From a bacterium (lineage in GTDB: Bacteria; Myxococcota_A; Bradymonadia; UBA7976; UBA1532): a stretch of 64,000 nt of DNA. How positions within the stretch are numbered: position 1 is the first letter of the stretch; the number at the start of each line of letters is the position of its first letter. Location: assembly GCA_030427205.1 (NCBI GenBank), contig JAUHXC010000013.1, forward strand, positions 70,413 through 134,412, in the 5' to 3' direction. Below the pieces are notes generated by a model that worked only from the letters and a program-made list of their open reading frames with translations, was not told where the DNA came from and searched no databases. Both the position numbers and the translations under genes were made by a program. Of the stretch, positions 4,593-26,747 are shown in pieces.

Positions 4593-4625
4593 GCGGTCTC
4601 CCTCGCGCGGGCGCTGCGTCCACTC

Positions 4626-4647
4626 TGATGGTGTCAAGTTACCATCA
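4626..4647. promoter_or_regulatory. inverted repeat TGATGGT-N8-ACCATCA inside an AT-rich (low-GC) intergenic island 4620-4760
   Basis: Seen directly in the sequence. It is a palindromic operator-like site in the only AT-rich stretch between the NUDIX operon and the glycosyltransferase gene. Confidence 0.3.
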
Positions 4648-5276
4648 TGGTGAATCTTGTTCCGGTGGTATATGCCCGTAACTGCTGGGTTTCCCGTACA
4701 GTTGTTCGCTTTGTGTGCAATTCGGAGGGGGTTAGCTGGCGAATGTGAACAATGGGCGAGTGGGTCTCGGGAGGAATGCGGTGGATGGGATCCTGAGCAC
4801 CGCGCCCACATGCGGTCGTACGCCGAGCGCACGCCCGGCAGGGATCACGGATCCGGCCCCTCGACGGCGTCCGGGGGCGGCGTCGAGTCGGGGGTCGATG
4901 CCCGGTTGTCGGGGGTTGCGCGCGGCAGTGGCAGCTCGGGTTGCATGTACGGCGCGAAGAGCCACAGCTGCCGGTCGGTGGGCCGCTTGCGCCGGCCGCG
5001 CCGCTCGCGCTGCCCGACGACGGGCGGTGCTGCCGCGATCGGCAGGGGCAGCTGGTCGTCGGTGGGCGGTCGTCGGGGCACGGCGGTCCGGCGGCGCTGT
5101 TGATCTCGGGCTGCACCGCTGCGCGACGCGTCAGGTCCCGGGTCTGGTTCGTCGAGAGTAGCGCCCTCCGCCGGTCGGGGCGACTTCGTGGCCCGCGCGG
5201 CCCGTATCGCCGTGGCGGCGGGGCGCATTGACAGGCCGGGGACCTCGCGGTAGAAGCGACGCTTCATGCGCCGTGC

Positions 5277-5295
5277 GACCGGAGGGCCTCCGGTC
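5277..5295. promoter_or_regulatory. perfect 9-bp-arm palindrome GACCGGAGG-G-CCTCCGGTC about 30 nt upstream of the glycosyltransferase start
   Basis: Seen directly in the sequence. It could be an operator or a 5'-UTR hairpin. Confidence 0.3.
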
Positions 5296-5323
5296 GTGAC
5301 CCACCCATGTTCCGGAGCAACCG

Positions 5324-7870
5324 GTGGCAGATCCGAGCGACGACCCCCGCCCCGAGGATGGGCCGCCGAGCGAAGGCGCGCAGGGATCCGATCGGGGTTC
5401 CGACGACGCCGCGGCGGCGGTCGATCCAGCCGTCGCGGCGGCCGCGGGCTCTTCGCAAACCGGCGCCGCGGACGCCCCGTCGAACGCCGCAGGGCCCGCC
5501 ACAGGTCCCGCCGCAGGGCCCGCCGCAGGGCCCACCGGCGTGCCGCGAGAGCCGCCTGCCGAGCCGCCCAGCGCCCCCCAGGGGCCCGCAGGGGCGCCCC
5601 CGGCACCTTCCTACTGGGGTCAGCGTCCGGCGGGCATAGCCGGCGACTGGCGCGTCCTGCTGGCCTTGGGCGTGCTGCTGACCGCCTTCTACTACCCCGG
5701 CCTGGGCAGCTACGGCCTGTTCGACCCTTGGGAGACCCACTACGGTGAGGTCGCCCGCAACATGGTCGAGTACGACAACTACATCGACCCCTGGTGGGGC
5801 TCGCACTGGGACACCAAGGACATCAAGCGTGAGCGGGAGGGCTTCTACAGCAAGCCGCTGCTGATCATGTGGATGATGGCCGGCGGCATGAACGTCGCCG
5901 GCTACGGTGAGCTGGGCGTCCGCCTCTTCTTCCCGTTCCTGGCGATCCTCGCGCTGTTGGCGGTCTATCTGGCCGTCTCGAGGTTCTACGGCCGGCGCGG
6001 CGGCATCCTGGCAGCGCTCGTGCTCGGGACGGCGCCCTTCTACGCGTTCATGAGCCGGCAGGCGGTGACCGACGGTCCATTGGTGGCCCTGATCACGGCC
6101 GGCATGATGGCGTTGTGTCTGGGCTTGTTCGGCACAGAAGACGACGAAGAGGCCTCACCGTGGCTCTACGGGTTCACGGTGGGGCTGCTCGTGCTGATCA
6201 TGGTCGGGCAGCTGTGGGCCATCCTGCCGATGGATCGCAGCCCGGACATCGTGCGCCCGTACCCCGGCGAGCGCGGCCCGTTCTTCGCCATCCAGTGGTG
6301 GTTCTCCGAGGTGTGGACCGTCGGGCGCGGCAAGGGCTGGGTGGTCTCGCTCGCGCTGCTGCCCATCGCCGGCTGGGCGACGTGGCGGGTCTCCCGGCAG
6401 CGCCGCCGGCGCATGCTGTACATCTACCTCTTCTACATCTGCTGCGGACTGGTGGTGCCGGCCAAGGGCTGGCTCGGCTGGGCGCCGATGGGGCTGTCGA
6501 TCATCGGCTACCTCATCGTCACCGGCGAGTGGAAGATCCTCGCTCGGGTCGACATCCCCACGGGGCTCTTGATCGTCTTCATGACCGGGCATCCGTGGAT
6601 CGTCGCGATGCTCGGCGGGCACCACCCCGGCTGGTGGAACCGCTTCATCGTGCACGACCACTACAAGCGCCTGTTCTCGGGCGTGCACAGCATCGATGAC
6701 GGCGCGTTCGAGTACTTCTTCCGCTGGATCGGCTACGGGCTCTTCCCGTGGATCGGGCTGTTGCCTGCGGCCTTGATCCGGGCCTTCGCCCGGCTGCGCG
6801 ATCGCGGCAAGGGGCTGACCCCGCAGAAGAAGTTCGAGTTGATGATGGTCTTGTGGGCCATCTTCGGCTTCTTCCTCTTCAGCAAATCGTCGACGAAGTT
6901 CCACCACTACATCTTCCCGGTCATCCCGCCGTTGGCCATCCTGACGGCGGTCTTCGTCGAGGCGATGTTGCTGCGGCGTGGCCGCAACCGACTGCTGATG
7001 CTCGCCTGCGCCGGCGCGCTGACCATCTGGGTCGGGCAGGACCTCTACCGCATGCCCGCGGCGCACGGTCAGGCGGCCCAGAACCTGGTGAACCTGTTCA
7101 CCTACAAGTACGACCGCGAGTGGCCCGAGTACACCCCGGCCGCCGACGTCGCCGAGCTGCCCGAAGACGAGCGACAGGCCGCCGAGAACGACAACCTCTG
7201 GCTCTTCTCGATGGCCAACCCCTTGCGCCTGATGGCGCTCATCGCCGTGCTGGGCATGCTGCTGCTCGCCGTCCGCCGCGATTGGATCAGGGAGGCCGGC
7301 ATACTCGCGCTGGGCTATGCGTCGGTCTGGTGCGCGTGGTGGTGTCTGCAGGAGTACCTGCCGGTGATCTCGGTCGACTGGTCGCAGAAGGGCATGTGGT
7401 CGGCGTACTACGATACGTGCACCAAGTACGGGCCCGACGAAGAGGACGAGTACCGCCGCCATCTCATCCTGACCTCGTCGCGAGTGCCCAACGACCTCGA
7501 GACCTTCCCCAGCGCGTGGTGCAAGGAGCCCTTCGTCGCCTTCCGCACGAACTGGCGCGGCGAGACCTTCTACTCGGCCAATACCGTGCTGCCGGCGATG
7601 GAGACGAAGTACATGAAGCCCTGGCTCGAGCAATGGGGCGAAGAGCAGGCCTTCTACCTGTTCACCGAGCGCAGCCGGGTGCGCAGCGAGCTCGAGCCGG
7701 CGCTGCCCAAGGACATGAAGGGCCAGTACACCGAGGTCCCGATTCCGCCGCAGCTGCCCGCCGCGCTCGTCGAGAAGTACCGCCTGCCCGACCGCAACTC
7801 GAAGTTCGTGCTGCTGCGGGTCCAGAAGGGCACCGGCAAGCCCGGCGCGGCCGACGAGGCGGCGCGCTGA
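5324..7870 (+). CDS. GT-C fold glycosyltransferase (family 39 / PMT_2, ArnT-like) with a disordered Pro/Ala-rich N-terminus
   Basis: Multi-TM protein carrying the loop motif GLFDPWETHYGEVARNM, which is typical of ArnT/PMT mannosyltransferases. GTG start with a GGAG RBS. The true start may lie further downstream. Confidence 0.8.
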   Translation: MADPSDDPRPEDGPPSEGAQGSDRGSDDAAAAVDPAVAAAAGSSQTGAADAPSNAAGPATGPAAGPAAGPTGVPREPPAEPPSAPQGPAGAPPAPSYWGQRPAGIAGDWRVLLALGVLLTAFYYPGLGSYGLFDPWETHYGEVARNMVEYDNYIDPWWGSHWDTKDIKREREGFYSKPLLIMWMMAGGMNVAGYGELGVRLFFPFLAILALLAVYLAVSRFYGRRGGILAALVLGTAPFYAFMSRQAVTDGPLVALITAGMMALCLGLFGTEDDEEASPWLYGFTVGLLVLIMVGQLWAILPMDRSPDIVRPYPGERGPFFAIQWWFSEVWTVGRGKGWVVSLALLPIAGWATWRVSRQRRRRMLYIYLFYICCGLVVPAKGWLGWAPMGLSIIGYLIVTGEWKILARVDIPTGLLIVFMTGHPWIVAMLGGHHPGWWNRFIVHDHYKRLFSGVHSIDDGAFEYFFRWIGYGLFPWIGLLPAALIRAFARLRDRGKGLTPQKKFELMMVLWAIFGFFLFSKSSTKFHHYIFPVIPPLAILTAVFVEAMLLRRGRNRLLMLACAGALTIWVGQDLYRMPAAHGQAAQNLVNLFTYKYDREWPEYTPAADVAELPEDERQAAENDNLWLFSMANPLRLMALIAVLGMLLLAVRRDWIREAGILALGYASVWCAWWCLQEYLPVISVDWSQKGMWSAYYDTCTKYGPDEEDEYRRHLILTSSRVPNDLETFPSAWCKEPFVAFRTNWRGETFYSANTVLPAMETKYMKPWLEQWGEEQAFYLFTERSRVRSELEPALPKDMKGQYTEVPIPPQLPAALVEKYRLPDRNSKFVLLRVQKGTGKPGAADEAAR
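5492..5539 (+). repeat. 4 x 12-nt tandem repeat (GGGCCCGCCGCA-like) encoding a (GPAA/GPTG)n low-complexity segment
   Basis: Seen directly in the sequence, inside the N-terminal disordered region of the glycosyltransferase. Confidence 0.6.
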
Positions 7871-8010
7871 CGGCGCCGGTCGATGCGGGCCGCCGGCGGC
7901 CGACCACGGGGCATGTGGCGTTCGCCGACGACCCGTCGTAGCATGGTCCCGCCGAGGCGGCCGATGCGAGGTCGAGCTGGTCTGCGGCGCATCTCGACAG
8001 CCGAGCGTCC

Positions 8011-9645
8011 GTGAACTTCCGAATCGCCATCACCCGTTTCCCTTCGCTCGGCGAGCCGGCCCGACAGCGCATCCTGGCGGCCCTCAGCGAAGCGACCGGC
8101 ATCTCGACGGACATGCTCGCCAGCCGGCTCGACAGCTCGCCGAGCTGGCTGTTCGACGTGCCCGACCGCGACGAAGCCGAGGCGTGGCGGGTCCTGCTCA
8201 ATCGACAGCGCGACGTGACCGTGGCCGCGCTGCCCTCGCTCGGTCGACCCGTGCCATCCCATCGCGAGGCGCTGCCCCGGGCGCGGGTCGCGCTGGGCGG
8301 CGGACGGACCGGCGCACGGGCCGGCGGCGGTCGTGTCGCCGAGGGGGGGCCGCCGTCGCAACCGAATACGCGGGTGTCCGGTGGCTCGCCTCGGCGGGGG
8401 ATCACGGCGCCGGTCGGTTTTGATGGCAGGCCGGGCGCGTCGAGCGCGGCCACGAGCGGCGCTTCGGATCCGGCCGAGGCGGCGCAGCGCGCCCCGAAGA
8501 CGGGCCGTCGCGGGATCACGGCGCCGGTGAGCTTCCTCGGTGATGGCGTGCAGACGCCCGATACCGAACCGCAGGTGCAGTCGCTCAGCGAGATGCTCGA
8601 GCACGAGCAGGCCTCCAGCGAGCACCCCGTACGCCTCGAAGACGGCGATCTGCAGCTGGCGTCGACCCGTCGAGCGCGGGGACACGCGCCGACGGTCGCG
8701 CCCGCCGGCCTGCGTCGCAAGGGCATCGACGTCCGGGTCTCGACCAGCGAGCGGGTCCTGGGCCCGCTCGTTCGGCTGCTGATCTTCGCCATCGTGCTCG
8801 GCGGCGGCGTCATGCTGTGGCGCTACTTCAATCGCCCGGTGGTCAACAAGCCGGTGCTGGCGACGATCGAGCTGCTCGAAGAAGGCCGGGTGCCCCTGGC
8901 CCCGCTGCGCTATGCCCCCGTCGAGGAGACCGAGACCTACAGCGTCGCGTTGAGCATCGAGCACCGGGTCGCCACCCGCCAGGTCGAGGTGCGGCCCGGC
9001 ATCGATACGATCGGCGGCGAGGGCCGACTCGAACGCAAAGACCAGGGCGAAGACTATTTCGACTATCTGCCGACCGGACGGGAGACCCGGCGTGGCCGCG
9101 TCCGGCTCGAGGCGATCAGGGTGCTCGATGTCGGGCATACCGGCGAGCTGCCCCCGCCGTGGCTGCCCGACGTGAGCGAAGACGACATGCCGGCGATGCA
9201 GGCTTTCGCCCGATTGCTGCGGCCGCCGTTCGTCCAGCTGCCGGTGGAGCCGGTCGGGGTGGGCGCCCGGTGGCGCTACCGCCAGGACGTCGACCAGAGC
9301 CCGCTGGCGATGCCGATCGACGTCGAGGTCGAGCTTCTGGGTCGCGACGGGCAGCGGCTCGAGCTCGGCCTGCGCTTCAAGGTGCCGCCCAGCCGGGATC
9401 CGGGCGAGGGCGCGAGCGCATACCAGCGCATCGGGCCGTTCTTCGTCCGCTACGACCCGCCGGTGCGCGTCTTCGACTTCGCCGGTGTCGGTGACGGACG
9501 GGCCACGATCAACCTCGAGCGCATGACCCCCGTGAGCCTCAATGTCGCCGTGCAGTTCGGCGCCCGCCTCGAAGCGCATACCGACTTCGGTCAGCAGCTC
9601 ATCGACTACTCGCCGGTGGTCAACCTCGAGATCGGCGAGGATTAG
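8011..9645 (+). CDS. hypothetical membrane-anchored protein (single TM near residue 250)
   Basis: 544 aa with normal amino-acid composition and a TM helix LVRLLIFAIVLGGGVMLW. It contains the duplicated motif RRGITAPV. The antisense 641-aa ORF is Arg-rich junk. Confidence 0.55.
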   Translation: MNFRIAITRFPSLGEPARQRILAALSEATGISTDMLASRLDSSPSWLFDVPDRDEAEAWRVLLNRQRDVTVAALPSLGRPVPSHREALPRARVALGGGRTGARAGGGRVAEGGPPSQPNTRVSGGSPRRGITAPVGFDGRPGASSAATSGASDPAEAAQRAPKTGRRGITAPVSFLGDGVQTPDTEPQVQSLSEMLEHEQASSEHPVRLEDGDLQLASTRRARGHAPTVAPAGLRRKGIDVRVSTSERVLGPLVRLLIFAIVLGGGVMLWRYFNRPVVNKPVLATIELLEEGRVPLAPLRYAPVEETETYSVALSIEHRVATRQVEVRPGIDTIGGEGRLERKDQGEDYFDYLPTGRETRRGRVRLEAIRVLDVGHTGELPPPWLPDVSEDDMPAMQAFARLLRPPFVQLPVEPVGVGARWRYRQDVDQSPLAMPIDVEVELLGRDGQRLELGLRFKVPPSRDPGEGASAYQRIGPFFVRYDPPVRVFDFAGVGDGRATINLERMTPVSLNVAVQFGARLEAHTDFGQQLIDYSPVVNLEIGED

Positions 9646-9814
9646 ACCCCAGGGCTCGGCCGGTCCCGTTCAGGATCTGGACGGCCTGGACACCTTGGAC
9701 GGTCCCGCAGCGACCCGCCTGCCTCCATAGCCACGCAGCACGCCCTATCCTCCGCCGTCACGGCTGGCATGGCGCGTGCTGTGTTCTCGCCCACAGCAAA
9801 CGCAGGAGGATCCG

Positions 9815-10231
9815 ATGTCAGGCCACGATGCCGTCGAGCACAACGCGCGTAGCGCTCACGAGCGTATCTGTCGCACCGCCCGTCGCCGTATACGCTGCCC
9901 CACGGCGCAGACCGGCCAGCAGCACGGGCCGCCGATGACGGGCAGGCCACCAGGGGACCATGAGACGTCGCCCACGAGCCGCCGGCCAGCGGAGCGGGCG
10001 CGCGCCGAGCGGGTCGACATCGCGTGGCTCATGGGCGTGACCGCCGGATGCGCACGGGGGCTTCTGGCGGGGCGTCGGCGGGCGCTGGAGATGGTATTGA
10101 CGGCCCGCTTCGGACCGCTCGCCGTCGACGCCTCGGCCCGGCTCGCCGCGGTCGAGCCCGATGTGCTCGATCAGCGTCTGCACGACGCGGCCCGAGCGCC
10201 CGATCTCGCGACGTTCTGGCGCGATGCATGA
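9815..10231 (+). CDS. small protein carrying a DUF4351-like C-terminal domain (the tail of an Rpn/YhgA-type PD-(D/E)XK nuclease/transposase); probably a remnant or stand-alone domain
   Basis: Consensus RBS CAGGAGGATCCG-ATG. The C-terminus ...LLAGRRRALEMVLTARFGPLAVDASARLAAVEPDVLDQRLHDAA... resembles the DUF4351 tail. There is no upstream nuclease core. The family assignment is from recall. Confidence 0.45.
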   Translation: MSGHDAVEHNARSAHERICRTARRRIRCPTAQTGQQHGPPMTGRPPGDHETSPTSRRPAERARAERVDIAWLMGVTAGCARGLLAGRRRALEMVLTARFGPLAVDASARLAAVEPDVLDQRLHDAARAPDLATFWRDA

Positions 10232-10251
10232 CCGACGAGCGACGCCGAGCG

Positions 10252-11595
10252 TCAGCCACGGCGCAGCGTCACGATGGCCAGATCGGGCACGCTGCCCGGC
10301 GTCTGATCGCACAGGGCGACCTCTTCGACGCTGTAGCGCGGCAGCGCTGCGAGGTCGCGCGCGAGCGCCGGCGCGAAGGGCGACAGACAGACGATGCGTC
10401 GCGGTGCCAGCGCGCGAACGGCGCCCATGGCTTCCGGTCCGAACGGCCGTCGCATGGCATGCATGACCACCAGATCGGCCCGGGCGCCGCGGGCGAGCAG
10501 CCGGCGCAGGGCATGCGCCGCCTCACCGGTCCGAAACGTCGCGTTGGTGACCCCGTTCTCGGCGGCGTTCGCTTCGGCGTCGAGCACCGCACCGCGCTCG
10601 ATGTCGATGCCGATCAGCGACCGGACCCGACGCGCGAGCGGCAGCGACAGCAGCCCGACACCGCAGCCGACCTCGATGACATCGTCGGTGGGCCGGCTGC
10701 CCGAGCCGTCGATGACTGCGCGTTGGATCGCGGGCACGGTCGCCGGCGCCTGTGGCACCCACGAGCGGGGGCCGGCGCGGAATCGGTCGTCGCCGATCGA
10801 GAAGCGCAGCATGGGATCGCCGCGAACCGGCCGGGGCCGATGAACCAGCCCTGCGCCGCGTCGAGGCAGTCGATCGACCAGCAGGGCCGTTTGCGGTTCG
10901 TCCACGAGCAGACGGTCGAATGGCGGATCGGCTGCGTGGGTATCCAGGGCCAGTATCACGCGGGTACTCGGCCCGATCCCGTGCACGATCACATGCCGCA
11001 ATACGCCCTCGCGCCGTTCGCTGTCCCAGGGCTCGACCGCCAGGGCCCGCAGCTCGCGTTCGAGGCGTGCCAACACCGCCCTCGAAGCCTCGTTCTGCAG
11101 CGGGCACTCGCCCAGCCTGACCGGCGGACACCCGCGTCGCGCCATGCCCAGGACCAGTCGACCGTCGCCGTCGCGCAAGGCCCGGGCGACGGCGCGGGCG
11201 CGTCCGCCGTCGTCGGCCGCCGAGGGCAGGCGTCGCCATGGCGCCTCGCCGGCCAGACCGCTCAGCGCCCGGTGATGCAGCGGGTCGGTGAGCTGGCGTC
11301 GATACGGTGTGGGCAGACCGCGAAGCGGGCAGCCCGGGCAGTCGTCGAACTGCTGACAGCGCGGGTCGATGCGCCGGGGCGAGGCGGTGAGCAACTCGAG
11401 GACGGTGGCGCGACCGTACGGGTCCGGCTGGACCTGCGCCGTCTCACCGGGCAGCAGGCCGGTGACGTCGAGGCGTATCGACTGGCCGGTTGTGACTCGC
11501 GTGGCGCCAGACCACCTCAGGGCATCGACGCCAGCGCCGACCCGAAGCGGCTCGATGCGCGGGTCGGGCTCACCGTCGACAGAGAGGTTCGGCAT
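10252..11595 (-). CDS. 23S rRNA (uracil-5)-methyltransferase RumA/RlmD-like (TRAM + Fe-S + SAM MTase)
   Basis: Cys cluster CPGCPL, SAM motif VIEVGCGVGLLSLPLA, and a C-terminal MTase domain. Confidence 0.85.
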   Translation of the reverse strand: MPNLSVDGEPDPRIEPLRVGAGVDALRWSGATRVTTGQSIRLDVTGLLPGETAQVQPDPYGRATVLELLTASPRRIDPRCQQFDDCPGCPLRGLPTPYRRQLTDPLHHRALSGLAGEAPWRRLPSAADDGGRARAVARALRDGDGRLVLGMARRGCPPVRLGECPLQNEASRAVLARLERELRALAVEPWDSERREGVLRHVIVHGIGPSTRVILALDTHAADPPFDRLLVDEPQTALLVDRLPRRGAGLVHRPRPVRGDPMLRFSIGDDRFRAGPRSWVPQAPATVPAIQRAVIDGSGSRPTDDVIEVGCGVGLLSLPLARRVRSLIGIDIERGAVLDAEANAAENGVTNATFRTGEAAHALRRLLARGARADLVVMHAMRRPFGPEAMGAVRALAPRRIVCLSPFAPALARDLAALPRYSVEEVALCDQTPGSVPDLAIVTLRRG

Positions 11596-11670
11596 GAGGC
11601 GGGCGGGGGGCGTGGGGCCGGCAGCGACGATGGCGCCGGCAGGGCGCAGAGCCGATGGGCGAGCGCGGTA

Positions 11671-13758
11671 TCAGTTGGGCGGCAGCTCGTAGAAGCGGTT
11701 GATCGGCTGAACCCGGCGGTCGCCCGGACTCCAGACGATCGAGGCGACCTCCCAGAAGTCCTCGGTATCGATGAGCTCGCGATCCGCCTCGAAGGCCAGC
11801 GCGCCGCCCAGGTAGATCCGCATCGTCACCAGGCTCGGGCCGTAGTCGCCCACGCCGGTCTCGCGGAACGAGCGGTAGTAGTGCGCCCCGACCCGGTAGG
11901 CCGAGCCGAGCGCCTGGGTATTCTCGGGGTTGTTGAGGTTGATGTTCTCCGGGCCGGCGCCGTTGACGTCGTCGATGTCGAGGCTCGGGTTGTCGTCCAC
12001 CTGGCCCAGCACGCCCCAGTCGGGGCTGGGGTTGCCGTAGTAGCAGCGGCGGCTGATGTCGCTCCAGCTCTGGGCGTTGGGGTGCAGGAACCACAGGTCG
12101 ACGTCGCTGCCGTCGGCGTCGGTCTGCGGGTTGACCGGCGAGGTGTCGTCGCCCGGGGTATCCCAGACCATCTGCACATGGATGTCTTCGTCGGGCTCGG
12201 CCAGGATCCGAATCTGGGCCGGCGCCTGCTCGCAGACGTCGCTCGGCGCGACCGCGTCGAGGTTGTCGACCACCCGCAGCTCGATGATGTACTCGCCGGT
12301 GAGGTCGACGAAGAACTGGGCGGTCGGGGTCTCGACCGAGTCGGGCGGGCCGCCGTCAGCGGGACGCAGCGGGTTGTGGAACTGCTCGACGGGCACCGCG
12401 GTCGAGCCCTGCGGGCGGCTGATGATGGTCCACTCGTAGCGCACGGGCCGCCCGTCGGGGCCGTCGGCGTCGACCGAGGGGCTGCCGTCCAGCGTGACGA
12501 TGTCGAGCGGCAGAACGACATACTCGGTGTCGGCGACCCGGGCTTCGGGGCACTCGTTGAGGGTGCCGCGGCCGACGAGCGGCACCTCGACCATCGGCAT
12601 GGCCGGATCGTTGGTGCTGATGACGACCATGCCCGCCGAGGCGTCCTCCGACTCGGGGGTGAAGACCACCGTGATGCCGCGGCTCGGCGGCACCGGCGGC
12701 TCGACGCTGCGGTCGAGGGCGGGCAGCTGCGAGGGCAGGGGGGGCAGGGTGTCGTCGTCGAGCGCGAAGACCCCGTTGCCGTCGTCGACGAGCTGAATGT
12801 CGTCGAGGCGCAAGGGCTCGCCGCCGCAGCTCTCGATGGTGAGGCGGCGCCGGTTGTCACGCCCGATGAGCGCCGCGCCGAACTCGAGGGTGCCCGGCAC
12901 CACGTTGATGCACGGCGTCGCGCCGTTGGCCCGCAGCTCGACGGTGCGCTCGGGCACCCGGTCGTTGCTGACGAAGACCACCAGCCCGTTGCTCGCCTCG
13001 TCGGCGTCGGGGGCGAAGGTCACGATGACCTCGAACGAGGCCGCCGGCGCGAGGCCCGCTTCACCGTCGCCGTCGGGATCCTCGAGCACCGCCGGGTTGG
13101 CGACGGGATCTTCGCCGTTGACGAGCAAGGTGAAGTTCTGGCTGCCGTCGACCCGCAGGCCCTGCATGAGCAGCGGCTCCTGGCCGATGTTGGTCGCCCG
13201 GATCGTGCGCTCGGCGGTGCTGCCGGCGGGCACCCGCTCGAAGTCGACGATGGTCGGGGTCAGGTTGAGCTCCGGTCCGCCGGCGATCACCTGCACCGGC
13301 ACGGTCACGTCCCGGTTCTCGGGGTCATTGCTCTCGAAGGTGATCTCGCCGCCGACCGCGTCGTCGGTGGCCGGGGCGAAGTTGACGTAGAGGGTCAGCC
13401 GCTCGCCGGGCGGCACGGTGACGACGCCGCCGAAGACGTTGACGCCGTCCTCGTAGGCGATGCGCTGAGCGCCATCGTCCTGCGTCGACAGCGCCCAGTA
13501 GATCCCGAATTCGCCGGAGAGGTTGGTATCGAGGTTGGCGATCTTGAGGTCGCCGGCGCCGATGTTCTCCACGGTGACGGTGCGCTCGGCGGACTCGCCG
13601 ACCGAGACCTTGGGGAACGAGATCATCTCGGGGATGACCTGCAACGACGAGAACGCCTCGTTGCGGATCGTCTCGTCACATCCCACCAGCATCCCGACCG
13701 CGGCCAGTATCAGGGGCATCGCGCGCAGCGAACGGCTGTGCATCCGGCTCTTCGTCAT
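11671..13758 (-). CDS. secreted lipoprotein with repeated beta-sandwich (choice-of-anchor-D/PKD-like) domains
   Basis: ATG at 13758 with a GGAGGA RBS. Lipobox LVGC. There are at least three ~100-aa repeats of the form 'I..FP.V.VG.S.ER.V.V.N.G...L.I' and a PKD-like 'RYEWTIISRPQGS' segment. Confidence 0.7.
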   Translation of the reverse strand: MTKSRMHSRSLRAMPLILAAVGMLVGCDETIRNEAFSSLQVIPEMISFPKVSVGESAERTVTVENIGAGDLKIANLDTNLSGEFGIYWALSTQDDGAQRIAYEDGVNVFGGVVTVPPGERLTLYVNFAPATDDAVGGEITFESNDPENRDVTVPVQVIAGGPELNLTPTIVDFERVPAGSTAERTIRATNIGQEPLLMQGLRVDGSQNFTLLVNGEDPVANPAVLEDPDGDGEAGLAPAASFEVIVTFAPDADEASNGLVVFVSNDRVPERTVELRANGATPCINVVPGTLEFGAALIGRDNRRRLTIESCGGEPLRLDDIQLVDDGNGVFALDDDTLPPLPSQLPALDRSVEPPVPPSRGITVVFTPESEDASAGMVVISTNDPAMPMVEVPLVGRGTLNECPEARVADTEYVVLPLDIVTLDGSPSVDADGPDGRPVRYEWTIISRPQGSTAVPVEQFHNPLRPADGGPPDSVETPTAQFFVDLTGEYIIELRVVDNLDAVAPSDVCEQAPAQIRILAEPDEDIHVQMVWDTPGDDTSPVNPQTDADGSDVDLWFLHPNAQSWSDISRRCYYGNPSPDWGVLGQVDDNPSLDIDDVNGAGPENINLNNPENTQALGSAYRVGAHYYRSFRETGVGDYGPSLVTMRIYLGGALAFEADRELIDTEDFWEVASIVWSPGDRRVQPINRFYELPPN

Positions 13759-14145
13759 GTCTTCCTCCGCCTGGCTACACGGACACGGTTCGTCTTGGGG
13801 ACGCCGCGCCAACGTCGTCATCATCGATACGTCGCCCGCGCCGACCAGTGCAAAATCCTGCCCGGCGTGGCGCATCTTTCCGCCCAGCCGGTAGATAATC
13901 AAGCGATAATCGATTCTGCTTGCAGGTCAGAGGCTTGCCGGTTGTCGGCGGCTCTGCGCTCGCGGGGCCGGCGCGCCCAAAATCGGCGTTGTTCCGAATA
14001 TGGGCCTGTCGGGCCGGGTGTCGGCCCGCGGCCGCGCGCTGTCAGCGGGATACCTTCGTGCCGTCGGGCGCCTTGCCCGTGGGGCGGGTGCCGGCGGCGC
14101 CCACGGCTTCGACGTGGTCGGACCGGGCGCTGCTTGCAGGGCGCG

Positions 14146-16881
14146 CTACTTCGATCCGCCGGTGGGCGCCTTCGATCCGGCGGCCGGCTCTGCATTCGAA
14201 GGCTCGGCCGCGGGCTTGCCGGCGGGCTGCAGCGCGGCCGTGAGCGGCTCCGCGATCGCCCCGCGCAGGCGGGCGCAGCGGCGAATATTCTCGAGCACCA
14301 GGCCGAGGTTCCGCGCCGTGCCATCGGGCGCATGGGCCGGATCGGAGAAGAACGCCTCGACCCGCTCGGCGTCCTGCTCGGTGCAGAAGCCGTTGCCGAC
14401 CCAGGGGAAGCGCGCCCGGTAGTCATCGCCCATGCGCTCGGCCAGGGCGTCGTAGTTGCGGGTCATCCACATCCACACGGCGTCACGGGTGGCGTGCCCC
14501 ACCCCGCGCAGCAGGGTCCTGAAGTCCTGCGCGGGCAGGGTCCCGTCGAGCATCAGGTCGAAGGTGCGCGTCGCCAGGGCAGGATCCTGGAAGGAACCCA
14601 ACGCACCGACGATGGCGACGCGCTTGATGGGATCGGGAGCGGTCTCGAGGGCCGCGCGCAGCTGTGTCCACAGCTCGGCATCGCCCTCCCACGCGGCGAT
14701 GGGCAGCACGAGGCTGGCCACTTCACCGGTCACCGCCTCGGGGTCGGCGAGCAGCGCGTCGACCTGTTCTCGGGCGAGCTTTCGCAGGGCGGCGTCGCGC
14801 CCGATATAGGCCAGCGGCGTCACCAGCCGCGGGCGCAGCAGGCGGGTCGCGACCGGGTCCTCCGCGCTCGGCAGAGGCCCGATGCGCTGCACGTGGGGAC
14901 CGATGGCCGCGCGCACGCGCCGGGCGAAGGCGTCGCCGAGGGCCGGACGATGCACGACCACCGCCTCGAAGAGTCGCCCGAAGCCGTCGACGACCCCCTG
15001 CACGACGAGGCGCTGAGTCCGCCGGGCGAGCAGGTCGAGCGCCGCGAGATAGGCCTCGACGGGCATCTCTCCGGCCTCGAGCAGCGTGCGGTAGGTGCCG
15101 GGCAGCGCGACCCGTTCGGCCGGCGTCAGGGCTTCGTAGTGCTCGCCGGCCAGGGCCAGCATGCGTTCGGGGGTCGTCTTCCACTGATAGTAGCCGCGCT
15201 GATCGTCGTTGCCCTGCAGCCAGTCGGGGCAGCCGGGCTGGCCGAGGGCGCGCTCGGCGGACTTGCCTTCGAACTCGAAGCACTCTCGATGGGTCTTGCC
15301 GCCGACGCCGTAGCGAATGCACATCGGCACCACCCACGGCTCGCCCTGCGGCGCGTCGCTGCCGGCGGGCAACGAGCGCTGCTGAGCCATGCCGAGGGTC
15401 GCCGGCGCGCCGTCGGTGCACGAGACCGTCAGCGCGACGAGCGGCGTGCCGGGCTGGTCGAGGAACATGCGGGCGGTCGCGGCGACCGGCTTGCCGGTGG
15501 ACGTCTCGAGGGCGTCCATGAGGTCGGCGGTGGTGCCGGTGCCGTAGGCGTGGCCCTTGATGTAGGCCCGGACCCCGTCGCGGAAGGGCTCGACGCCTGT
15601 CCACGACTCGAGCATGCGCAGCACCGCGGCGCCCTTGCCATAGGTGATGCCGTCGAATGCGTTCCCGACGTCGCCGCCGTCGGCGATGGGCTGGCGGATG
15701 GCGCGCGCGTGGCGCTGAGCGTCGAGATCCATCACATAAGCCGTCCCGGCGACCCGTTCGAGGTTCATCTCGAGCGCCGGATCGACCTGATGCACGATCT
15801 TGGCCGCCATCCACGTGGCGAAGGCCTCGTTCAGCCACAGGTCGTCCCACCAGGCGAGGGTGACCATGTTGCCGAACCACATGTGGGCCAGTTCGTGCGC
15901 GATGACCGACTGGCTCCACATCTTGCGGTTGGCCGGCGCGGTCTCCTCGTCGAGCAGCAGCAGCGTCTCGCGGTAGGTGACGAGCCCCACGTTCTCCATC
16001 GCGCCGGCGGCGAAGTTGGGCACCGCGACCATGTCGAGCTTGTCGAAGGGGTGCGGTCCGCCGAAGTACTCGCTCAGCGCGGCGTGGATGATCGGCGTGC
16101 GCTCGAGCGCGTAGTCCGCCAGCTTGCCTTTGCCCTTGGTCGCGATGATGCGAAACGGCACGCCTGGGATGGCGTCTTCGGGGGCTTCGACCACGTCGAA
16201 GTCGCCCACGGCGAAGGCCACCAGGTACGTGGGCAGCGGGCGGCTCTCGGCGAAGGTGAACGCGGTCAGTTCGCCGCCCTCGGCCTTCGACACCTGCAGG
16301 CTGTTGGAGAGCGCGAGCAGGCCGTTGGGCACCCGCAGCGTCGTATTGAACGGGGTCTTGAAGTCGGGCTGGTCGAAGCACGGGAAGACCCGCCGCGCCG
16401 ACAGCGGCTGGAACTGGGTGAAGGCATACCAGCTGCCCCCATCTTCGACCCGGTAGAGCCCGGTGGGCACCTCGGGCAGCTTGCCCTCGAACTGGAAGGT
16501 CAGCGTGGCTTCACCCGCTGGCAGCGGCTCGACGAAGACTGCGCCCAGCCCGCCGTTGGGTCCGCTGACCGCGCGCCCGGTTCGGGTCGCGTCGCCCACC
16601 TTGGCTTCCAGGGCGGTGATCGTGAGGTCTTCGCCGTGCAGCTCGATGATGGCCTGCGGCCCGCTGAGCCGCACGTCGATCGAGACGGTGCCGCGGGTGG
16701 TGGTGGCGTTCGGGTCGATCTGCAGGTCGAGCGTATAGCTCAGGGGCGTGACGGCGCTGCCCAGCCGGGCGTCGCCGTCCGGTCCCGCGGCGGAGGCTTC
16801 GCCGTTGTCGGGTGCCGGTGCCGGGGCGCTGCCACAGCCGAAGAAGAGCAACATGATGAGCCAGAAGCGTGTGTCGGGCAC
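14146..16881 (-). CDS. M1-family aminopeptidase N-like lipoprotein
   Basis: GAMEN motif and the HEXXH...E zinc site (VIAHELAHMWFGN...WLNEAF). GTG start at 16881 with an AGGAGGA RBS 7 nt upstream. Lipobox-like LFFGC. Confidence 0.9.
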   Translation of the reverse strand: MPDTRFWLIMLLFFGCGSAPAPAPDNGEASAAGPDGDARLGSAVTPLSYTLDLQIDPNATTTRGTVSIDVRLSGPQAIIELHGEDLTITALEAKVGDATRTGRAVSGPNGGLGAVFVEPLPAGEATLTFQFEGKLPEVPTGLYRVEDGGSWYAFTQFQPLSARRVFPCFDQPDFKTPFNTTLRVPNGLLALSNSLQVSKAEGGELTAFTFAESRPLPTYLVAFAVGDFDVVEAPEDAIPGVPFRIIATKGKGKLADYALERTPIIHAALSEYFGGPHPFDKLDMVAVPNFAAGAMENVGLVTYRETLLLLDEETAPANRKMWSQSVIAHELAHMWFGNMVTLAWWDDLWLNEAFATWMAAKIVHQVDPALEMNLERVAGTAYVMDLDAQRHARAIRQPIADGGDVGNAFDGITYGKGAAVLRMLESWTGVEPFRDGVRAYIKGHAYGTGTTADLMDALETSTGKPVAATARMFLDQPGTPLVALTVSCTDGAPATLGMAQQRSLPAGSDAPQGEPWVVPMCIRYGVGGKTHRECFEFEGKSAERALGQPGCPDWLQGNDDQRGYYQWKTTPERMLALAGEHYEALTPAERVALPGTYRTLLEAGEMPVEAYLAALDLLARRTQRLVVQGVVDGFGRLFEAVVVHRPALGDAFARRVRAAIGPHVQRIGPLPSAEDPVATRLLRPRLVTPLAYIGRDAALRKLAREQVDALLADPEAVTGEVASLVLPIAAWEGDAELWTQLRAALETAPDPIKRVAIVGALGSFQDPALATRTFDLMLDGTLPAQDFRTLLRGVGHATRDAVWMWMTRNYDALAERMGDDYRARFPWVGNGFCTEQDAERVEAFFSDPAHAPDGTARNLGLVLENIRRCARLRGAIAEPLTAALQPAGKPAAEPSNAEPAAGSKAPTGGSK

Positions 16882-17110
16882 CGGGCGTCCTCCTGAGCAG
16901 ACCGTGGCGGCGCAGCATACAGCACGGCGCCCGAGGCTGCGACGCCCTGGCATGCCGCGGCCTTCCCGAGAGCGGCCCGGCTCGGCCGAACTGCGACGCA
17001 GCCGAGCCTTGCGCCGTGGGCGCTCATCGCGCGTCGGCCTTCCAATCGGTGGAGTGCCCGACGAAGATGGACCGGTGGGCGATCCGCCCGCCCCGACCGA
17101 TGGAGCTGTC

Positions 17111-17866
17111 TTGACCCGGATCACCTGCCTCGGCTCGAGCGATGCGTTCAACAGCGGCGGTCGAGCCAACAGCTGCTTCTGGGTCGACGACGCCCACGGT
17201 GCCTTCACCGTCGACTTCGGGCCGACCGCGCTGCTGGCGATCGAGCGGCTGAAGCTCGACCTGAGCCGGCTCGACAGCGTCTTCGTCACCCACCTGCACG
17301 GGGATCACATCGGCGGGCTGGCTCAGTTGCTCTGCGCGTATCAGCATCGCGAGAAGCGCCGCAGACCCCTGACGATCGGGGGGCCGCCGGGCATCGAGCG
17401 GCGGTTGGCGGCGGCGATCGAATCGGCCTATCCCAGCTTGTCGCGACGTGGGTTGGGGTTTCCCCTGCGCATCGTGCGCTGGACGGTGCCCGGGACCACG
17501 GATTGCGGTGGGCGGACGGTCAGCGCCATCCGCGCCCGTCATGACATCCATGCCATCGCCTGCTCGCTGAGGATCACGACCGGCGAGCACGCGCTGACGT
17601 TCAGCGGTGATACCGGCTGGCAGGCCGAGCTGGTCGAGCTGGCAGCGGGCGCCGATCTCTTCGTATGCGAGTGCAGCGACGTCGAGGCGGGCTACTGGGC
17701 CCATATCAGCCTGACCGAAATCGCCGCCGAGCGCGCGACGATCCGGGCCGATCGGCTGTGGTTGACCCACTTCGGCGCCGCGAGCCGCGCTGCGGCCCTG
17801 GCCCGTGCCCAAGAGCTCGACCTCACGGTCGCCGACGACGGCCTCGTGCTCGAGCTGGGCCGTTGA
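17111..17866 (+). CDS. MBL-fold metallo-hydrolase (RNase Z/PhnP-like, ~250 aa)
   Basis: HxHxDH motif (THLHGDHIGG). TTG start with a GGAG RBS yields MTRITCLGSSDAF..., which is typical of an MBL N-terminus. The stop lies 14 nt before the next gene. Confidence 0.8.
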   Translation: MTRITCLGSSDAFNSGGRANSCFWVDDAHGAFTVDFGPTALLAIERLKLDLSRLDSVFVTHLHGDHIGGLAQLLCAYQHREKRRRPLTIGGPPGIERRLAAAIESAYPSLSRRGLGFPLRIVRWTVPGTTDCGGRTVSAIRARHDIHAIACSLRITTGEHALTFSGDTGWQAELVELAAGADLFVCECSDVEAGYWAHISLTEIAAERATIRADRLWLTHFGAASRAAALARAQELDLTVADDGLVLELGR

Positions 17867-17880
17867 CGGCGAGAGAGCGC

Positions 17881-19542
17881 GTGTCTGGTCCAGACGCAGC
17901 CGATACCGCGGGACACGTCTTCGTCGTGCGCGGTGACTTGACCCGATTCGGCTGCGACGCGTGGTTGTTGCCCACCGATCGCGTGCGGCACGTCACCCGA
18001 AGCTGGTGGCGCAACCCGTCGCTGGTGCCCCTGCTGCGTGCGGCCGGGTGTTGGCGCCACGGGGCCAAGCCCGACTTCATCGCGCCCTTCGAGGGGCGGG
18101 TGCTGCCGCTGCTCGACGCGCTCGACGGGCAGCCGGCGCGGCCCATCCCGTGCCTGACGCGGGTCGGCAACCGGGCGGATACGCCGCTCGAGTGGTACAT
18201 CGAAGGGGTCGAGGCCTTCGTCGATGTCGCGCTCGCGGCGCTCGCTGAGGGCCGGGTCCTGTCCCGTCGGGCGCGCCCGCTGCTCGCGCTGCCCCTCGTG
18301 GGCACGGGGCACGGCGGCAAGCGGCGCCATGCCGGGCAGGTCGCCGAGGCGCTGGTCGATGCGCTGTACGGCATCGCCGAACGGCGCGGTGTCGATCTGG
18401 CGCTGGTGACGCGCTCCGACCGCGATTTTGCGGGGGCGCAGGCGGCGCGTCGCGAGCGGGCGGCCTTCGCCGCGCTGTCGCCGCGTCTGGTCGAGCGCGC
18501 CCGCCGGCTGGCCCGGCAGGCGGCCACCGGGCAGCTGGTGATCTTCCTCGGCGCCGGGGTGAGCGCCGGGGCCGGTCTGCCGCTGTGGAGCGAGCTGCTC
18601 GCTCAGCTCGCCGGTCGGGCCGGGCTGCACACCGAGAGCGACGAGTGGCCGCATTTCGGCGCGCTCGGCGCCTTGGATCAGGCCGAGTATCTCGCGGCGC
18701 GCCTGCGTGAACACGGCGGGCTCGGGCAGGCCGTCGTCGACGCCCTCGAGCCCTACGACGTCTACAGCCTGGCCCACGGGCTCGTCGCCGGTCTGCCGGT
18801 CGGCGAGGCGATCACCACCAATTACGATCGGCTCTTCGAGCATGCCTGTCAGGCCGCCGGCCGCCCGTGCGCGGTCCTGCCCTACAGCCCCGGTACGCAG
18901 CACGATCGCTGGCTGCTGAAGATGCACGGGTGTCTCTCGCGGCCCGAAGACATCGTGCTCACCCGCGAGAGCTACCTGCGCTATGCCGAGCGCAACGCCG
19001 CGTTGGCGGGCATCGTTCAGGCGATGCTGATCACCCGGCACATGCTCTATCTGGGCTTCGGCCTGGGCGATGACAACTTCCTGCGCATCGTCGACGCGGT
19101 GCGCCGGGCCATGGTGCCGGGCGCGGCGTCGGGCAGGGTATCGGGCGACGCCGAGCGCAGCCGCGCCGGGTCGTCGGGCGACGCACCGCTCGGCACCGCG
19201 GTGATGCTGTCCGACAATCCGCTGCTGCGGACCCTGTGGCGTGGCGAGCTGGAGTGGCTCAGCGTAGACGACGGCGCGGCCGACGTGGCGATCGCCGCCC
19301 GCCGGGTCGAGATCTTCCTCGACTGCATCTCGCTGCACGCGACCGCGCCGGCGCACCTGCTCGACAATCGCTTCGCGCCGCTGCGGTCGGCCGAGGACGA
19401 GGCGCTCGCGCGGTTGCTCGACCCGCTGTCTCGCCTCGCCGCGGCCGACCCGGCGCGGCAGTCGTCCGCCTGGCCGATGGTGGCGCAGCTGCTCCGTCGG
19501 CTCGGCCGCACGCCGGGGCCGACGCGCAAGACCGACGACTGA
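17881..19542 (+). CDS. fusion protein: N-terminal macro-like (ADP-ribose-binding-like) domain + SIR2-family (DHS-like NAD/FAD-binding, SIR2_2-type) domain + ~150-aa C-terminal domain of unknown function
   Basis: SIR2_2 motifs are present: LVIFLGAGVSAGAGLPLWSELL, ITTNYDRLFE, LLKMHGCLSRPEDIVLTRESY, and LYLGFGLGDDNF. The N-terminus (VFVVRGDLTRFGCDAWLLPTD...LALPLVGTGHGG) resembles the macro-domain fold motifs. GTG start with a GAGAGAG RBS. The Arg-rich 72-aa extension in the track is rejected. Confidence 0.75.
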   Translation: MSGPDAADTAGHVFVVRGDLTRFGCDAWLLPTDRVRHVTRSWWRNPSLVPLLRAAGCWRHGAKPDFIAPFEGRVLPLLDALDGQPARPIPCLTRVGNRADTPLEWYIEGVEAFVDVALAALAEGRVLSRRARPLLALPLVGTGHGGKRRHAGQVAEALVDALYGIAERRGVDLALVTRSDRDFAGAQAARRERAAFAALSPRLVERARRLARQAATGQLVIFLGAGVSAGAGLPLWSELLAQLAGRAGLHTESDEWPHFGALGALDQAEYLAARLREHGGLGQAVVDALEPYDVYSLAHGLVAGLPVGEAITTNYDRLFEHACQAAGRPCAVLPYSPGTQHDRWLLKMHGCLSRPEDIVLTRESYLRYAERNAALAGIVQAMLITRHMLYLGFGLGDDNFLRIVDAVRRAMVPGAASGRVSGDAERSRAGSSGDAPLGTAVMLSDNPLLRTLWRGELEWLSVDDGAADVAIAARRVEIFLDCISLHATAPAHLLDNRFAPLRSAEDEALARLLDPLSRLAAADPARQSSAWPMVAQLLRRLGRTPGPTRKTDD

Positions 19543-19675
19543 CAAGGCGCGCCTCGCTGGGGCAGGGGTCGGGTCGATGCCCGTATCGCGGCCATCGCTG
19601 CGATGAATCGCGGCCTCACGGACACCTTGGCGCCGTCGATCGGTAGTCATCCCGACGCATTGATCGGGAGGTGCC

Positions 19676-20122
19676 GTGCACCGACGACAACTCGCCAGGC
19701 ACGCCGAGATCCTGCGGGCGATGATGAAGACCGGGGTGACGCTCGAACGCATCGGCGACAGCTTCGTCCGCCTCGCCGAACACCCCGACTTCCTCCGCTG
19801 CTCTCGGCCGCATCGCGATCCCGACCTCGAACGGCACCTGTGGGCCGCCGCGGTGCAGCGCGACCTCGTCGAACCCGAAGCGGCCCGCGGGACCCTGCCG
19901 TTGATGCGACATACGCCCTCCCGCCTGGTGCACGGCACGCTGCCGGGGACCGGCCTGCTGCCGGTGATCGTGTGCTGGTTCGAGCCCGATGCCCAGGGCC
20001 TGTTCATCGCCGCCGATCTCGAGCGGGGCAATGACTACCATCGCCTCTGTCGATGGCGACCGCCGGCAGCGCCCGGGCGCCGTGCCCGCTGGCGGCCCTT
20101 CGCGCGCGCAGCGAGCGCCTGA
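19676..20122 (+). CDS. hypothetical protein (148 aa), third gene of the MBL-hydrolase / macro-SIR2 cluster
   Basis: GTG start with a strong GGGAGG RBS 5 nt upstream. GC3-rich codon usage. No recognisable domain. Confidence 0.4.
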   Translation: MHRRQLARHAEILRAMMKTGVTLERIGDSFVRLAEHPDFLRCSRPHRDPDLERHLWAAAVQRDLVEPEAARGTLPLMRHTPSRLVHGTLPGTGLLPVIVCWFEPDAQGLFIAADLERGNDYHRLCRWRPPAAPGRRARWRPFARAASA

Positions 20123-20157: not shown

Positions 20158-23619
<3,462 letters not shown>

Positions 23620-23744: not shown

Positions 23745-25172
<1,428 letters not shown>

Positions 25173-25343
25173 GACCGGCCCCGGATCACCCGAGCGGGGG
25201 CGGCCGGCTCGATCGGACCACGTCAGCAGGCGTCGGCTCTCTGGTGCATCGTCCATCACTTGTGGTGAGTAGCGCACCGGTCTGGATGGTGCAAGATGCA
25301 TCAGCCCGTCTCGCGAGGCCCGTCGGCATGCGGCCTGCCGCCC

Positions 25344-25403: not shown

Positions 25404-26747
25404 ATGTCGCTCGACCACACGCCCCGCGCCGCGCCCACCCCCGCTCACCTGGAGACCTCCATGAACCCTCACGACACCGTCGGCGCGCGCGCGCCGGTCC
25501 ACCCCTCGGCCACCGGCCTGCCGCCCAACGCGCGGATCCTGGCGGGGCCCGATGTCTGGCTCGAGTCCCGGGCCGTCGAGCAGCTGGCCCGGGTCGCCGC
25601 GCTGCCCGCGTGCCGCTGCGCCGTCGGCCTGCCCGATCTGCACCCCGGCCGAGGCATACCCATCGGCGCCGCGTTCGACTTCGACGGCGAGGTCCGCCCG
25701 CGGCTGGTCGGCGGCGACGCCGGCTGCGGCGTGCGCCTCGTGGCCATCAAGAAGCTCAAGCACAAGGGCGACAGCCTGCTGCGGCGGCTCGCGGATGTGA
25801 TGCACGGCCCGGCCCTGCCCGCCTGCGACGACCGCGCCCTGCTGGCCGCCGTCTGGCGCGCCGGACCCGCCGGCCTGGCCGAGGTCGAGGGCGTGCCCGA
25901 CGCGCTCGCGGCGCTCGCCGCCACCGAGGCGGCCGATCCGGCGCCGAGCGACGACGACGGGCCCCTCGCCGCGCCGTGGCGGCCCAGCTTCGCCGAGCAG
26001 CTGGGCACCATCGGCGGCGGCAATCACTTCGTCGAGCTCAGCCGCGTCGACCGGGTCGTCGACAAGGCCACCGCCCGCGGGCTGGGCCTGACCGCGGGCG
26101 GCTGGGCGGTGGTGGCCCACTCCGGCTCCCGCGGGCTGGGCGGGCACATCGCCGGGCTGTACGACGAGACGCCGCTGGTCGACGGCCCCGCGCTGCGCAC
26201 CTATCTCGCCCGGCTGCGCGGCGCACTGAACTACGCCCGGGCCAATCGGCTCGTCCTCGTGTGGCGGCTGCTCGACGCCTTGGGCGCCGCCCGCGCGAGC
26301 CGCATCTCGGGCGGGTTCGACCTGATCCACAACACCGTGCTCCCGCTCGCGCCGGGCCGCTGGCTGCACCGCAAGGGCGCCGCGCCCGCCGCGGCCGGCG
26401 AGCCGACGATCGTGCTCGGCAGCCGCGGCACGCCGAGCTGGGTCATGCGGGGCTGCGGTCGGGCCGAGACGCTGTGCTCGGTGGCCCACGGCGCCGGTCG
26501 CAAGATGGGGCGCTCCGAGGCGGTGGCCAAGCTGCGCGGCAAGCACGACCGCCGCACGCTCAACCGCACCGCCACCGGCGGGCACGTCTTCTGCGACGAC
26601 GCGCGGCTGCTGCTGGCCGAGCACCCCGACGCCTACAAGCCCATCGAGCCCGTCGTCGCGGCCATCGAGGCCGCCGACGCCGCGCGGCGGGTGGCGGCGC
26701 TGGTGCCCTACGCCAACTTCAAGACCGGCGGCGGCCGGAGGGACTGA
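25404..26747 (+). CDS. rtcB: RtcB-family RNA 3'-phosphate/2',3'-cyclic phosphate ligase (RtcB2-like, paired with PrfH)
   Basis: Conserved RtcB segments are present: PDLHPGRG, GGDAGCGV, IGGGNHFVE, and HSGSRGLG. Confidence 0.9.
   Translation: MSLDHTPRAAPTPAHLETSMNPHDTVGARAPVHPSATGLPPNARILAGPDVWLESRAVEQLARVAALPACRCAVGLPDLHPGRGIPIGAAFDFDGEVRPRLVGGDAGCGVRLVAIKKLKHKGDSLLRRLADVMHGPALPACDDRALLAAVWRAGPAGLAEVEGVPDALAALAATEAADPAPSDDDGPLAAPWRPSFAEQLGTIGGGNHFVELSRVDRVVDKATARGLGLTAGGWAVVAHSGSRGLGGHIAGLYDETPLVDGPALRTYLARLRGALNYARANRLVLVWRLLDALGAARASRISGGFDLIHNTVLPLAPGRWLHRKGAAPAAAGEPTIVLGSRGTPSWVMRGCGRAETLCSVAHGAGRKMGRSEAVAKLRGKHDRRTLNRTATGGHVFCDDARLLLAEHPDAYKPIEPVVAAIEAADAARRVAALVPYANFKTGGGRRD

Follow-up and report, generated by a model that had tools for sequence, protein, structure and literature searches.

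A solitary macrodomain–SIR2 gene in a conserved Myxococcota synteny block encodes a candidate ADP-ribose-gated NADase

Results

Genes of the macro–SIR2 locus

We analysed a 64-kb stretch of bacterial DNA (contig JAUHXC010000013.1, hereafter the window; G+C about 72% throughout) in which three plus-strand open reading frames (ORFs) lie within 17.1–20.1 kb. The ORF list agreed with the first-pass annotation on these three genes and their shared strand. The middle gene encodes a protein, here called macro–SIR2, in which a divergent N-terminal macrodomain is fused to a SIR2_2-type NADase domain. The first gene (ORF1, 17111..17866) encodes a 251-aa hydrolase of the metallo-β-lactamase (MBL) fold that is RNase Z/BN-like. 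The fold had been proposed before and was supported by an HxHxDH motif and by matches to Pfam Lactamase_B_2 (3e-19; 69.8 bits against a cut-off of 27, placing it in the MBL superfamily) and Lactamase_B (2e-13). Scores against narrower families were below their cut-offs, with 22 bits against 50 for Apyc1 (PF23023), 74.5 bits over the full length against 400 for a cyclic-nucleotide phosphodiesterase (NF041851) and 86.7 bits against 293 for RNase Z (TIGR02651). We recovered 1,397 homologues of the MBL protein.

Loci in other genomes are labelled so that L082–L085 are close relatives carrying macro–SIR2 and L087–L092 are six contigs from four lineages without it. The third gene of the window (ORF3, 19676..20122, 148 aa) is preceded by GGGAGG and resulted in zero matches in the Pfam, PADLOC and NCBIfam libraries. 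The earlier proposal of a genuine small gene behind this motif held up, as ORF3 is a real coding gene conserved in relatives with orthologues 82% (L084), 71% (L082) and 64.5% identical (L087).

The macro–SIR2 gene had been described as starting 14 nt behind the MBL gene, a gap that holds only when GTG at 17881 is used as the start (553 aa). In relatives the start of macro–SIR2 overlaps the MBL stop as NTGA, with ATGA in L082 and GTGA in L084 and L085, and an in-frame TTGA is present at 17863 in the window. By analogy with these conserved overlaps, TTG at 17863 is probably the start and overlaps the MBL stop, giving a gene at 17863..19542 on the plus strand and a 559-aa protein. With this NTGA overlap within the clade the macro–SIR2 gene is co-transcribed with the MBL gene and is probably translationally coupled to it. 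Residue numbers below are counted from GTG 17881. The public gene call (protein P0001, 538 aa) begins 15 residues too late (17881-17926), so that G11–H12–x–F14, a motif of macro strand β1 whose named residues are invariant, is lost from it.

Domains and motifs of the macro–SIR2 protein

A homologue search covering 5.8 billion proteins recovered more than 460 full-length homologues of macro–SIR2, nearly all of 505–565 aa and covering 96–98% of the query. Conservation was read from an alignment of 60 homologues, which demonstrated strong motifs in both halves of the protein. The AF2 model of the whole protein reached a pLDDT of 92 and a pTM of 0.93, the latter indicating that the interface between the macro and SIR2 halves is fixed in the model.

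The SIR2_2 NADase domain is of the ThsA/KomC type and together with a C-terminal helical tail spans residues ~200–545 (18478..19515, plus strand). Pfam SIR2_2 matched residues 310–411 and the PADLOC ThsA SIR2 model matched residues 210–410 (2e-31), covering positions 13–211 of the 478 in the model only. The domain carries a GAGVS Rossmann loop, a TTNYD motif (N314, nt 18820–18822) and a KMHG motif (H349, nt 18925–18927). By HMMER alignment N314 and H349 correspond to the catalytic N112 and H152 of BcThsA, and both are invariant in the 60 homologues. The NAD pocket and the NADase catalytic dyad are therefore intact, and the first-pass assignment of a SIR2_2 domain of the Thoeris kind was borne out. 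Residues 411–437 form a low-complexity loop. A further domain of ~150 aa had been placed behind the SIR2 domain. In the model the SIR2 domain continues in this region with more strands and helices and then ends in a helical tail, and most of the supposed further domain is probably accounted for by the C-terminal part of the SIR2 fold together with this tail.

The N-terminal domain (residues ~10–195; 17908..18465, plus strand) had been called macro-like from its motifs, and structure and sequence comparisons confirmed the macro fold. Residues 9–200 modelled alone (pLDDT 89) were evaluated using Foldseek, and essentially all of the 50 listed matches were macrodomains or macro-built proteins with a probability of 1.0. 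A sequence profile of the domain also reached macroH2A1.1 (E 0.0035), TTHA0132 and a PARP15 macro without the aid of structure. In Af1521-type macros the Asp of the GDxT motif contacts adenine, and the macrodomain retains this Asp (GDLT) as well as the diphosphate-binding loop LVGTGHGG (GTGxGG, loop 2). It is without the Gly-rich (GGG) loop 1 after β2 and without the MacroD-type Asn, with 'WLLPTD…' standing in for 'NAAN…GGG', and a ~60-residue insertion follows β2. With both ligand-contacting motifs kept and the hydrolase loop 1 missing, this pattern favours a predicted binding module over a hydrolase.

The protein begins directly at macro strand β1. No transmembrane (TM) segment was detected, as the highest 19-residue Kyte–Doolittle mean was 1.61, over the Rossmann β1 and Gly loop, and no TM-like helix was present in the model. 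No Zn-ribbon Cys tetrad was found in the protein.

Gain and loss of macro–SIR2 in a conserved synteny block

The three genes had been proposed to form a compact operon and a three-gene system. Gene neighbours, identified by BLAST with Pfam confirmation, did not bear this out. L082 and L084 (77–83% identity) have the same whole order as the window, which is aminopeptidase, MBL, macro–SIR2, ORF3 and kinase. L083 and L085 (~60% identity) have aminopeptidase–MBL–macro–SIR2 followed by an acetyltransferase, without ORF3. The order in L087–L089 is methyltransferase, ASH-Ig, aminopeptidase, MBL, a 159-aa ORF and a 1,165-aa kinase with no macro–SIR2 between, and in L087 the 159-aa ORF is the ORF3 orthologue noted above and the kinase is an orthologue of the window kinase (69.5%). 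In L090, L091 and L092 the aminopeptidase and MBL genes are paired and macro–SIR2 is absent. The MBL gene divergently adjoins the M1 aminopeptidase gene in every context examined without macro–SIR2 (four lineages, six contigs). The M1 aminopeptidase, MBL, ORF3 and kinase genes are a conserved Myxococcota synteny block, within which the aminopeptidase (minus strand) and MBL (plus strand) are a core pair. ORF3 is part of the MBL/kinase block and separate from macro–SIR2, and the region upstream of ORF3 is conserved with or without macro–SIR2.

We then compared the window with 80 distant macro–SIR2 loci in species-representative genomes from many phyla. Using tblastn over ±8 kb, a relative of the MBL or of ORF3 was found at 0/80 of these loci. 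The presence of the MBL/ORF3 block without macro–SIR2, together with distant macro–SIR2 loci that have neither MBL nor ORF3, leads us to conclude that macro–SIR2 is a solitary accessory gene, gained and then lost in one lineage, and that the MBL is its core neighbour and no dedicated partner. The earlier reading of the window went too far in this respect, since two of the three genes, the MBL and ORF3, have the core synteny context that had been named as evidence against a system; they are conserved neighbours and not components of one.

In a crude neighbour-joining tree of the MBL, used together with aminopeptidase identities, the L087 lineage without macro–SIR2 was placed between two clades that carry the gene at the same junction. 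As the gene-less lineage is nested between carrier clades, one gain followed by one loss of macro–SIR2 is the most parsimonious history. Around the insertion, flanking repeats and mobile-element scars were limited to short repeats at chance level. The window is also not a defence island. PADLOC on the neighbouring genes gave only generic kinase matches, an RtcR match and one partial match to a mad2 model.

The macro–SIR2 family and its neighbourhoods

A profile of the macro half searched against 1.84 billion representatives resulted in 1,525 clusters at 50% identity, 1,127 of them at E ≤ 1e-10. The SIR2 half was present in 91/91 new full-length representatives from this search, and macro-half matches without SIR2 were all ≤281 aa and probably fragments, so this macro variant appears to be essentially always fused to SIR2. 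The family occurs in Myxococcota, Bradymonadia, Planctomycetota, Actinomycetota, Acidobacteriota, Chloroflexota and others with a patchy spread (at least 245 confirmed among 185,579 species representatives). The bacterial macro–SIR2 fusion is real and widespread, and is a domain recombination of the sort that specialists in NAD/ADP-ribose (ADPr) conflict would expect. Four proteins (P0242, P0253, P0300 and P0241; 1,028–1,693 aa) are tandem (macro–SIR2)×2 polypeptides. In P0242, P0253 and P0300 the second of the two SIR2 copies has the lower score, a hint of an obligate dimeric unit or of regulation by a pseudo-enzyme. In P0007 and P0008 a stretch of ~100 aa made of low-complexity, DA/GD-rich repeats is inserted into the helical subdomain of SIR2.

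Clustering of the flanking ORFs at the 80 loci yielded no universal partner gene, the largest family being NrtR at 11 loci. A Pfam scan of 60 immediate same-strand neighbours of macro–SIR2 demonstrated a heterogeneous set with one unrelated Lactamase_B match. No TIR family was listed among these 60 neighbours or in L093–L095 and no TIR gene was a recurrent partner in the 80 loci, although rare TIR neighbours are possible. A 525-aa gene upstream in L094 was considered as a macro–SIR2 paralogue and was rejected on testing.

One clear recurrent linkage emerged, to NrtR (Nudix+WHD), ARPP-1 (PF20208) and ADP-ribosylglycohydrolase (ARG), the last often fused to a DSP-type phosphatase (DSPc). These genes adjoin macro–SIR2 in 8–11/80 loci, which come from several actinobacterial genera and from two further phyla, and both their side (upstream or downstream) and their orientation vary. 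NrtR, ARPP and ARG make up the 'ARG-centric' module, for which a role against viral ADP-ribosylation was predicted and in which Macro, NADAR and restriction endonucleases (REases) are variable accessories (Iyer et al. 2022, PMC9503650 section 3.8); that study chose systems without a linked sirtuin and the macro–SIR2_2 fusion is not described there. The ARG-centric feature set, consisting of an ARG core with a Nudix or WYL transcription factor, a phosphatase and ARPP nearby, was found in L046, L051, L052, L062, L064, L068, L077 and L081, and neighbours of this type in varied arrangements also occur at L080 and L028. The window is without these genes, as tblastn of its 64 kb gave no match to NrtR, ARPP or ARG–DSP.

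Occasional neighbours of macro–SIR2 include BrxC/D, REase-ARP, PLD-helicase with DUF3427, patatin and GIY-YIG proteins. In Paenarthrobacter and Pseudarthrobacter (L054, L052 and L060) a gene for a PLD-nuclease–ResIII helicase–DUF3427 protein of ~1,100 aa is repeatedly present ~4-7.5 kb upstream of macro–SIR2. In three Polyangium species (L021, L022 and L024; ~4000-11900) a kinase-STAND gene (~1,300 aa), macro–SIR2 and a patatin-like phospholipase gene (~755 aa) follow one another on one strand with overlaps or gaps of ≤7 nt, and this arrangement may be a genuine multi-effector operon around the family.

Discussion

Relation to known SIR2 and macrodomain systems

SIR2 NADases are a major effector class in prokaryotic and, as is emerging, animal immunity, and macrodomains are the canonical readers of ADP-ribose. 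The closest comparison is with ThsA of type I Thoeris (SIR2–SLOG; BcThsA 6lhx, SeThsA 7uxt), which shares the SIR2 NADase domain with its catalytic Asn and His. The proteins differ in the sensor, which is a C-terminal SLOG domain in ThsA and an N-terminal macrodomain in macro–SIR2. No C-terminal SLOG/STALD domain, the 3'cADPR-binding part of ThsA, was found in macro–SIR2, and HMMER matches to ThsA chains cover the SIR2 portion only (~residues 15–243). The TIR gene thsB that adjoins any Thoeris ThsA was likewise not found, the neighbours in the window being the MBL gene and ORF3 with no TIR/ThsB match. ThsA of type II Thoeris (TM–macro; EcThsA 8v6q) has a macrodomain in common with macro–SIR2, but its N-terminal TM effector helices are absent from macro–SIR2, as is ThsB. 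The macrodomain of type II ThsA is non-catalytic, and the ADPr-derived ligand that it senses is His-ADPR or ADPR (PMC11204291; 10.64898/2025.12.03.692087).

The macrodomain-linked SirTM sirtuins and fused Mfs1 (8rsn) resemble macro–SIR2 in that a macro and a sirtuin-fold domain occur together, whether in an operon or in a single polypeptide. SirTM is however a class M ADP-ribosyltransferase (Pfam SIR2 type) with different operon partners, whereas macro–SIR2 belongs to the SIR2_2 NADase clade. KomC (Kongming), DSR1/DSR2, SIR2–HerA, Avs5 and FAM118B are SIR2_2 NADases and, unlike macro–SIR2, none of them carries a macrodomain. They are activated by partner or phage proteins or by other nucleotides, and KomC needs KomB. 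Macro–SIR2 did not qualify as DSR1/DSR2, with 28 bits for NF041819 and 21 bits for NF041818 against cut-offs of 1,400 and a length of 553 aa against >1,000 aa. In eukaryotes a fusion of an immune-type SIR2 with Macro has been reported for SIRim clade C (bioRxiv 10.1101/2024.09.18.613514). That clade is eukaryotic whereas the fusion described here is bacterial, and the two are likened by reported architecture only. In the literature we found the macro plus SIR2_2-type architecture only in passing, in SIRim clade C and in the labelling of a tree in the FAM118 paper. The first-pass annotation had not recognised a single-chain macro–SIR2 from described systems, and in agreement with this the searchable literature yielded no experimental description of a bacterial macro–SIR2_2 fusion. 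All of its nearest characterised relatives are immune NADases, and by analogy macro–SIR2 would act most like ThsA with the sensor swapped for a macrodomain.

A candidate ADP-ribose-gated NADase

We propose, with a probability of roughly 0.55, that the locus contributes one accessory gene encoding a soluble protein in which a ThsA-like SIR2 NADase is gated by an ADP-ribose ligand. The macrodomain would serve as the sensor and bind an ADP-ribose-containing ligand, which may be ADPr itself, free or conjugated, or a signal derived from it. Ligand binding would release the SIR2 domain or assemble it into an active oligomer that hydrolyses NAD+, probably by the oligomerisation route of ThsA, KomC, Avs5 and FAM118B, and the resulting NAD+ depletion would lead to growth arrest or abortive infection. 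ThsA works likewise with its SLOG sensor, as does type II Thoeris with a macro sensor. As the gene has no linked enzyme that would generate a signal, the ligand probably originates elsewhere or from the invader, with phage ADP-ribosyltransferases as one conceivable source. This idea fits the recurrent linkage to NrtR/ARPP/ADP-ribosylglycohydrolase systems. In this lineage the gene would have been inserted directly behind the core MBL gene, riding on its transcription, with the later loss in one related lineage. A macro and a SIR2 domain in one polypeptide, in more than 1,000 clusters from several phyla and with no linked signal generator, are a candidate new way to gate NAD+ depletion.

Several points weigh against this proposal. 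The argument for ligand-induced activation is by analogy only, and no biochemical or phage-challenge data were found for any member of the family. The macro–SIR2 gene has no compositional anomaly, its base composition being that of its neighbours, and it evolves at about their rate. The plasmid and phage collections searched held no full-length copies, only SIR2-domain matches. The window is not a defence island and many macro–SIR2 loci lie in ordinary housekeeping contexts. The conserved 4-nt overlap with the MBL may mean a lineage-specific functional link, and is the sole argument for a local one.

The same overlap, conserved in four relatives, is used by the reading in which all three genes form a dedicated NAD+/ADPr defence system, with the MBL degrading or making a (cyclic) nucleotide signal and ORF3 as an accessory. 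The shared strand, the full-length resemblance of the MBL to the cyclic-nucleotide phosphodiesterases of NF041851 and the strong ribosome-binding site at ORF3 also fit such a system. We regard it as very improbable and already largely refuted by phyletic independence, since the MBL and ORF3 are kept in the block without macro–SIR2 (L087–L089), the MBL stays with the M1 aminopeptidase in 4/4 examined lineages lacking macro–SIR2, ORF3 is missing beside macro–SIR2 in L083 and L085, the distant loci have neither gene and the MBL scores are far under the Apyc1, phosphodiesterase and RNase Z cut-offs. A different division of labour would make the protein a writer and eraser in one chain, with the SIR2 domain ADP-ribosylating a protein or nucleic-acid target as in SirTM and the fused macro removing the mark as in macrodomain-linked sirtuins and fungal Mfs1. 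We consider this arrangement quite unlikely. The macros linked to SirTM are active hydrolases. In macro–SIR2, judged from sequence alone, loop 2 and the adenine-contact Asp are present and the Gly-rich loop 1 of MacroD-type hydrolases is absent.

A housekeeping or regulatory NAD+/ADPr enzyme, such as an ADPr-feedback-controlled consumer of NAD+ in development or stress and not in immunity, is likewise unlikely. Many loci do lie among housekeeping genes, the gene of the window is integrated in a core operon with native composition, large-genome Myxococcota, Planctomycetota and Actinomycetota are over-represented among its carriers, and macro–SIR2 adjoins NrtR, a known family of NAD-metabolism regulators. 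The NrtR genes near macro–SIR2 however belong to the ARG/ARPP conflict-type module, and the very patchy spread of the family, its presence or absence between close relatives and the immune function of its nearest characterised relatives also speak against a housekeeping role. More speculative than the gated NADase that we prefer, and of low probability, is a self-contained guard against viral ADP-ribosylation. Here the macrodomain would detect ADPr adducts, or ADPr freed by ARG/ARPP, during phage ADP-ribosyltransferase activity and the SIR2 domain would destroy NAD+. If so, NAD+ loss would both remove the substrate of the transferase and arrest the cell, the immune sensor would read the enzymatic product of the pathogen and not a host-made second messenger, and the predicted ARG-centric systems would have their effector arm in macro–SIR2. 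We know of no experimental example of a host response that senses phage ADP-ribosylation, and the NrtR/ARPP/ADP-ribosylglycohydrolase linkage is a testable lead on how bacteria might sense and respond to it.

Flanking genes in the window

Upstream of the MBL gene the flank consists of the M1 aminopeptidase gene (minus strand) and then a gene for an ASH/Ig-repeat protein. A 2,290-aa open frame at 10024-16896 (plus strand) was rejected as a gene, being a high-GC shadow ORF antisense to the aminopeptidase and ASH-Ig genes. Downstream, a Ser/Thr kinase–AAA_16 (STAND-like) gene at 20158-23619 (minus strand) is convergent with ORF3, and a paralogue of this kinase (37% identical) lies ~20 kb further downstream near 39558-43070 (minus strand). 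An RtcR-type CARF–sigma-54 activator gene follows at 23748-25283 (minus strand; PADLOC RtcR_PspF2--CARF_AAA_HTH, 2e-132), and divergent from it is a gene for an RtcB RNA ligase at 25404-26744 (plus strand). The RtcR/RtcB pair is an RNA-repair operon and is located two genes from macro–SIR2.

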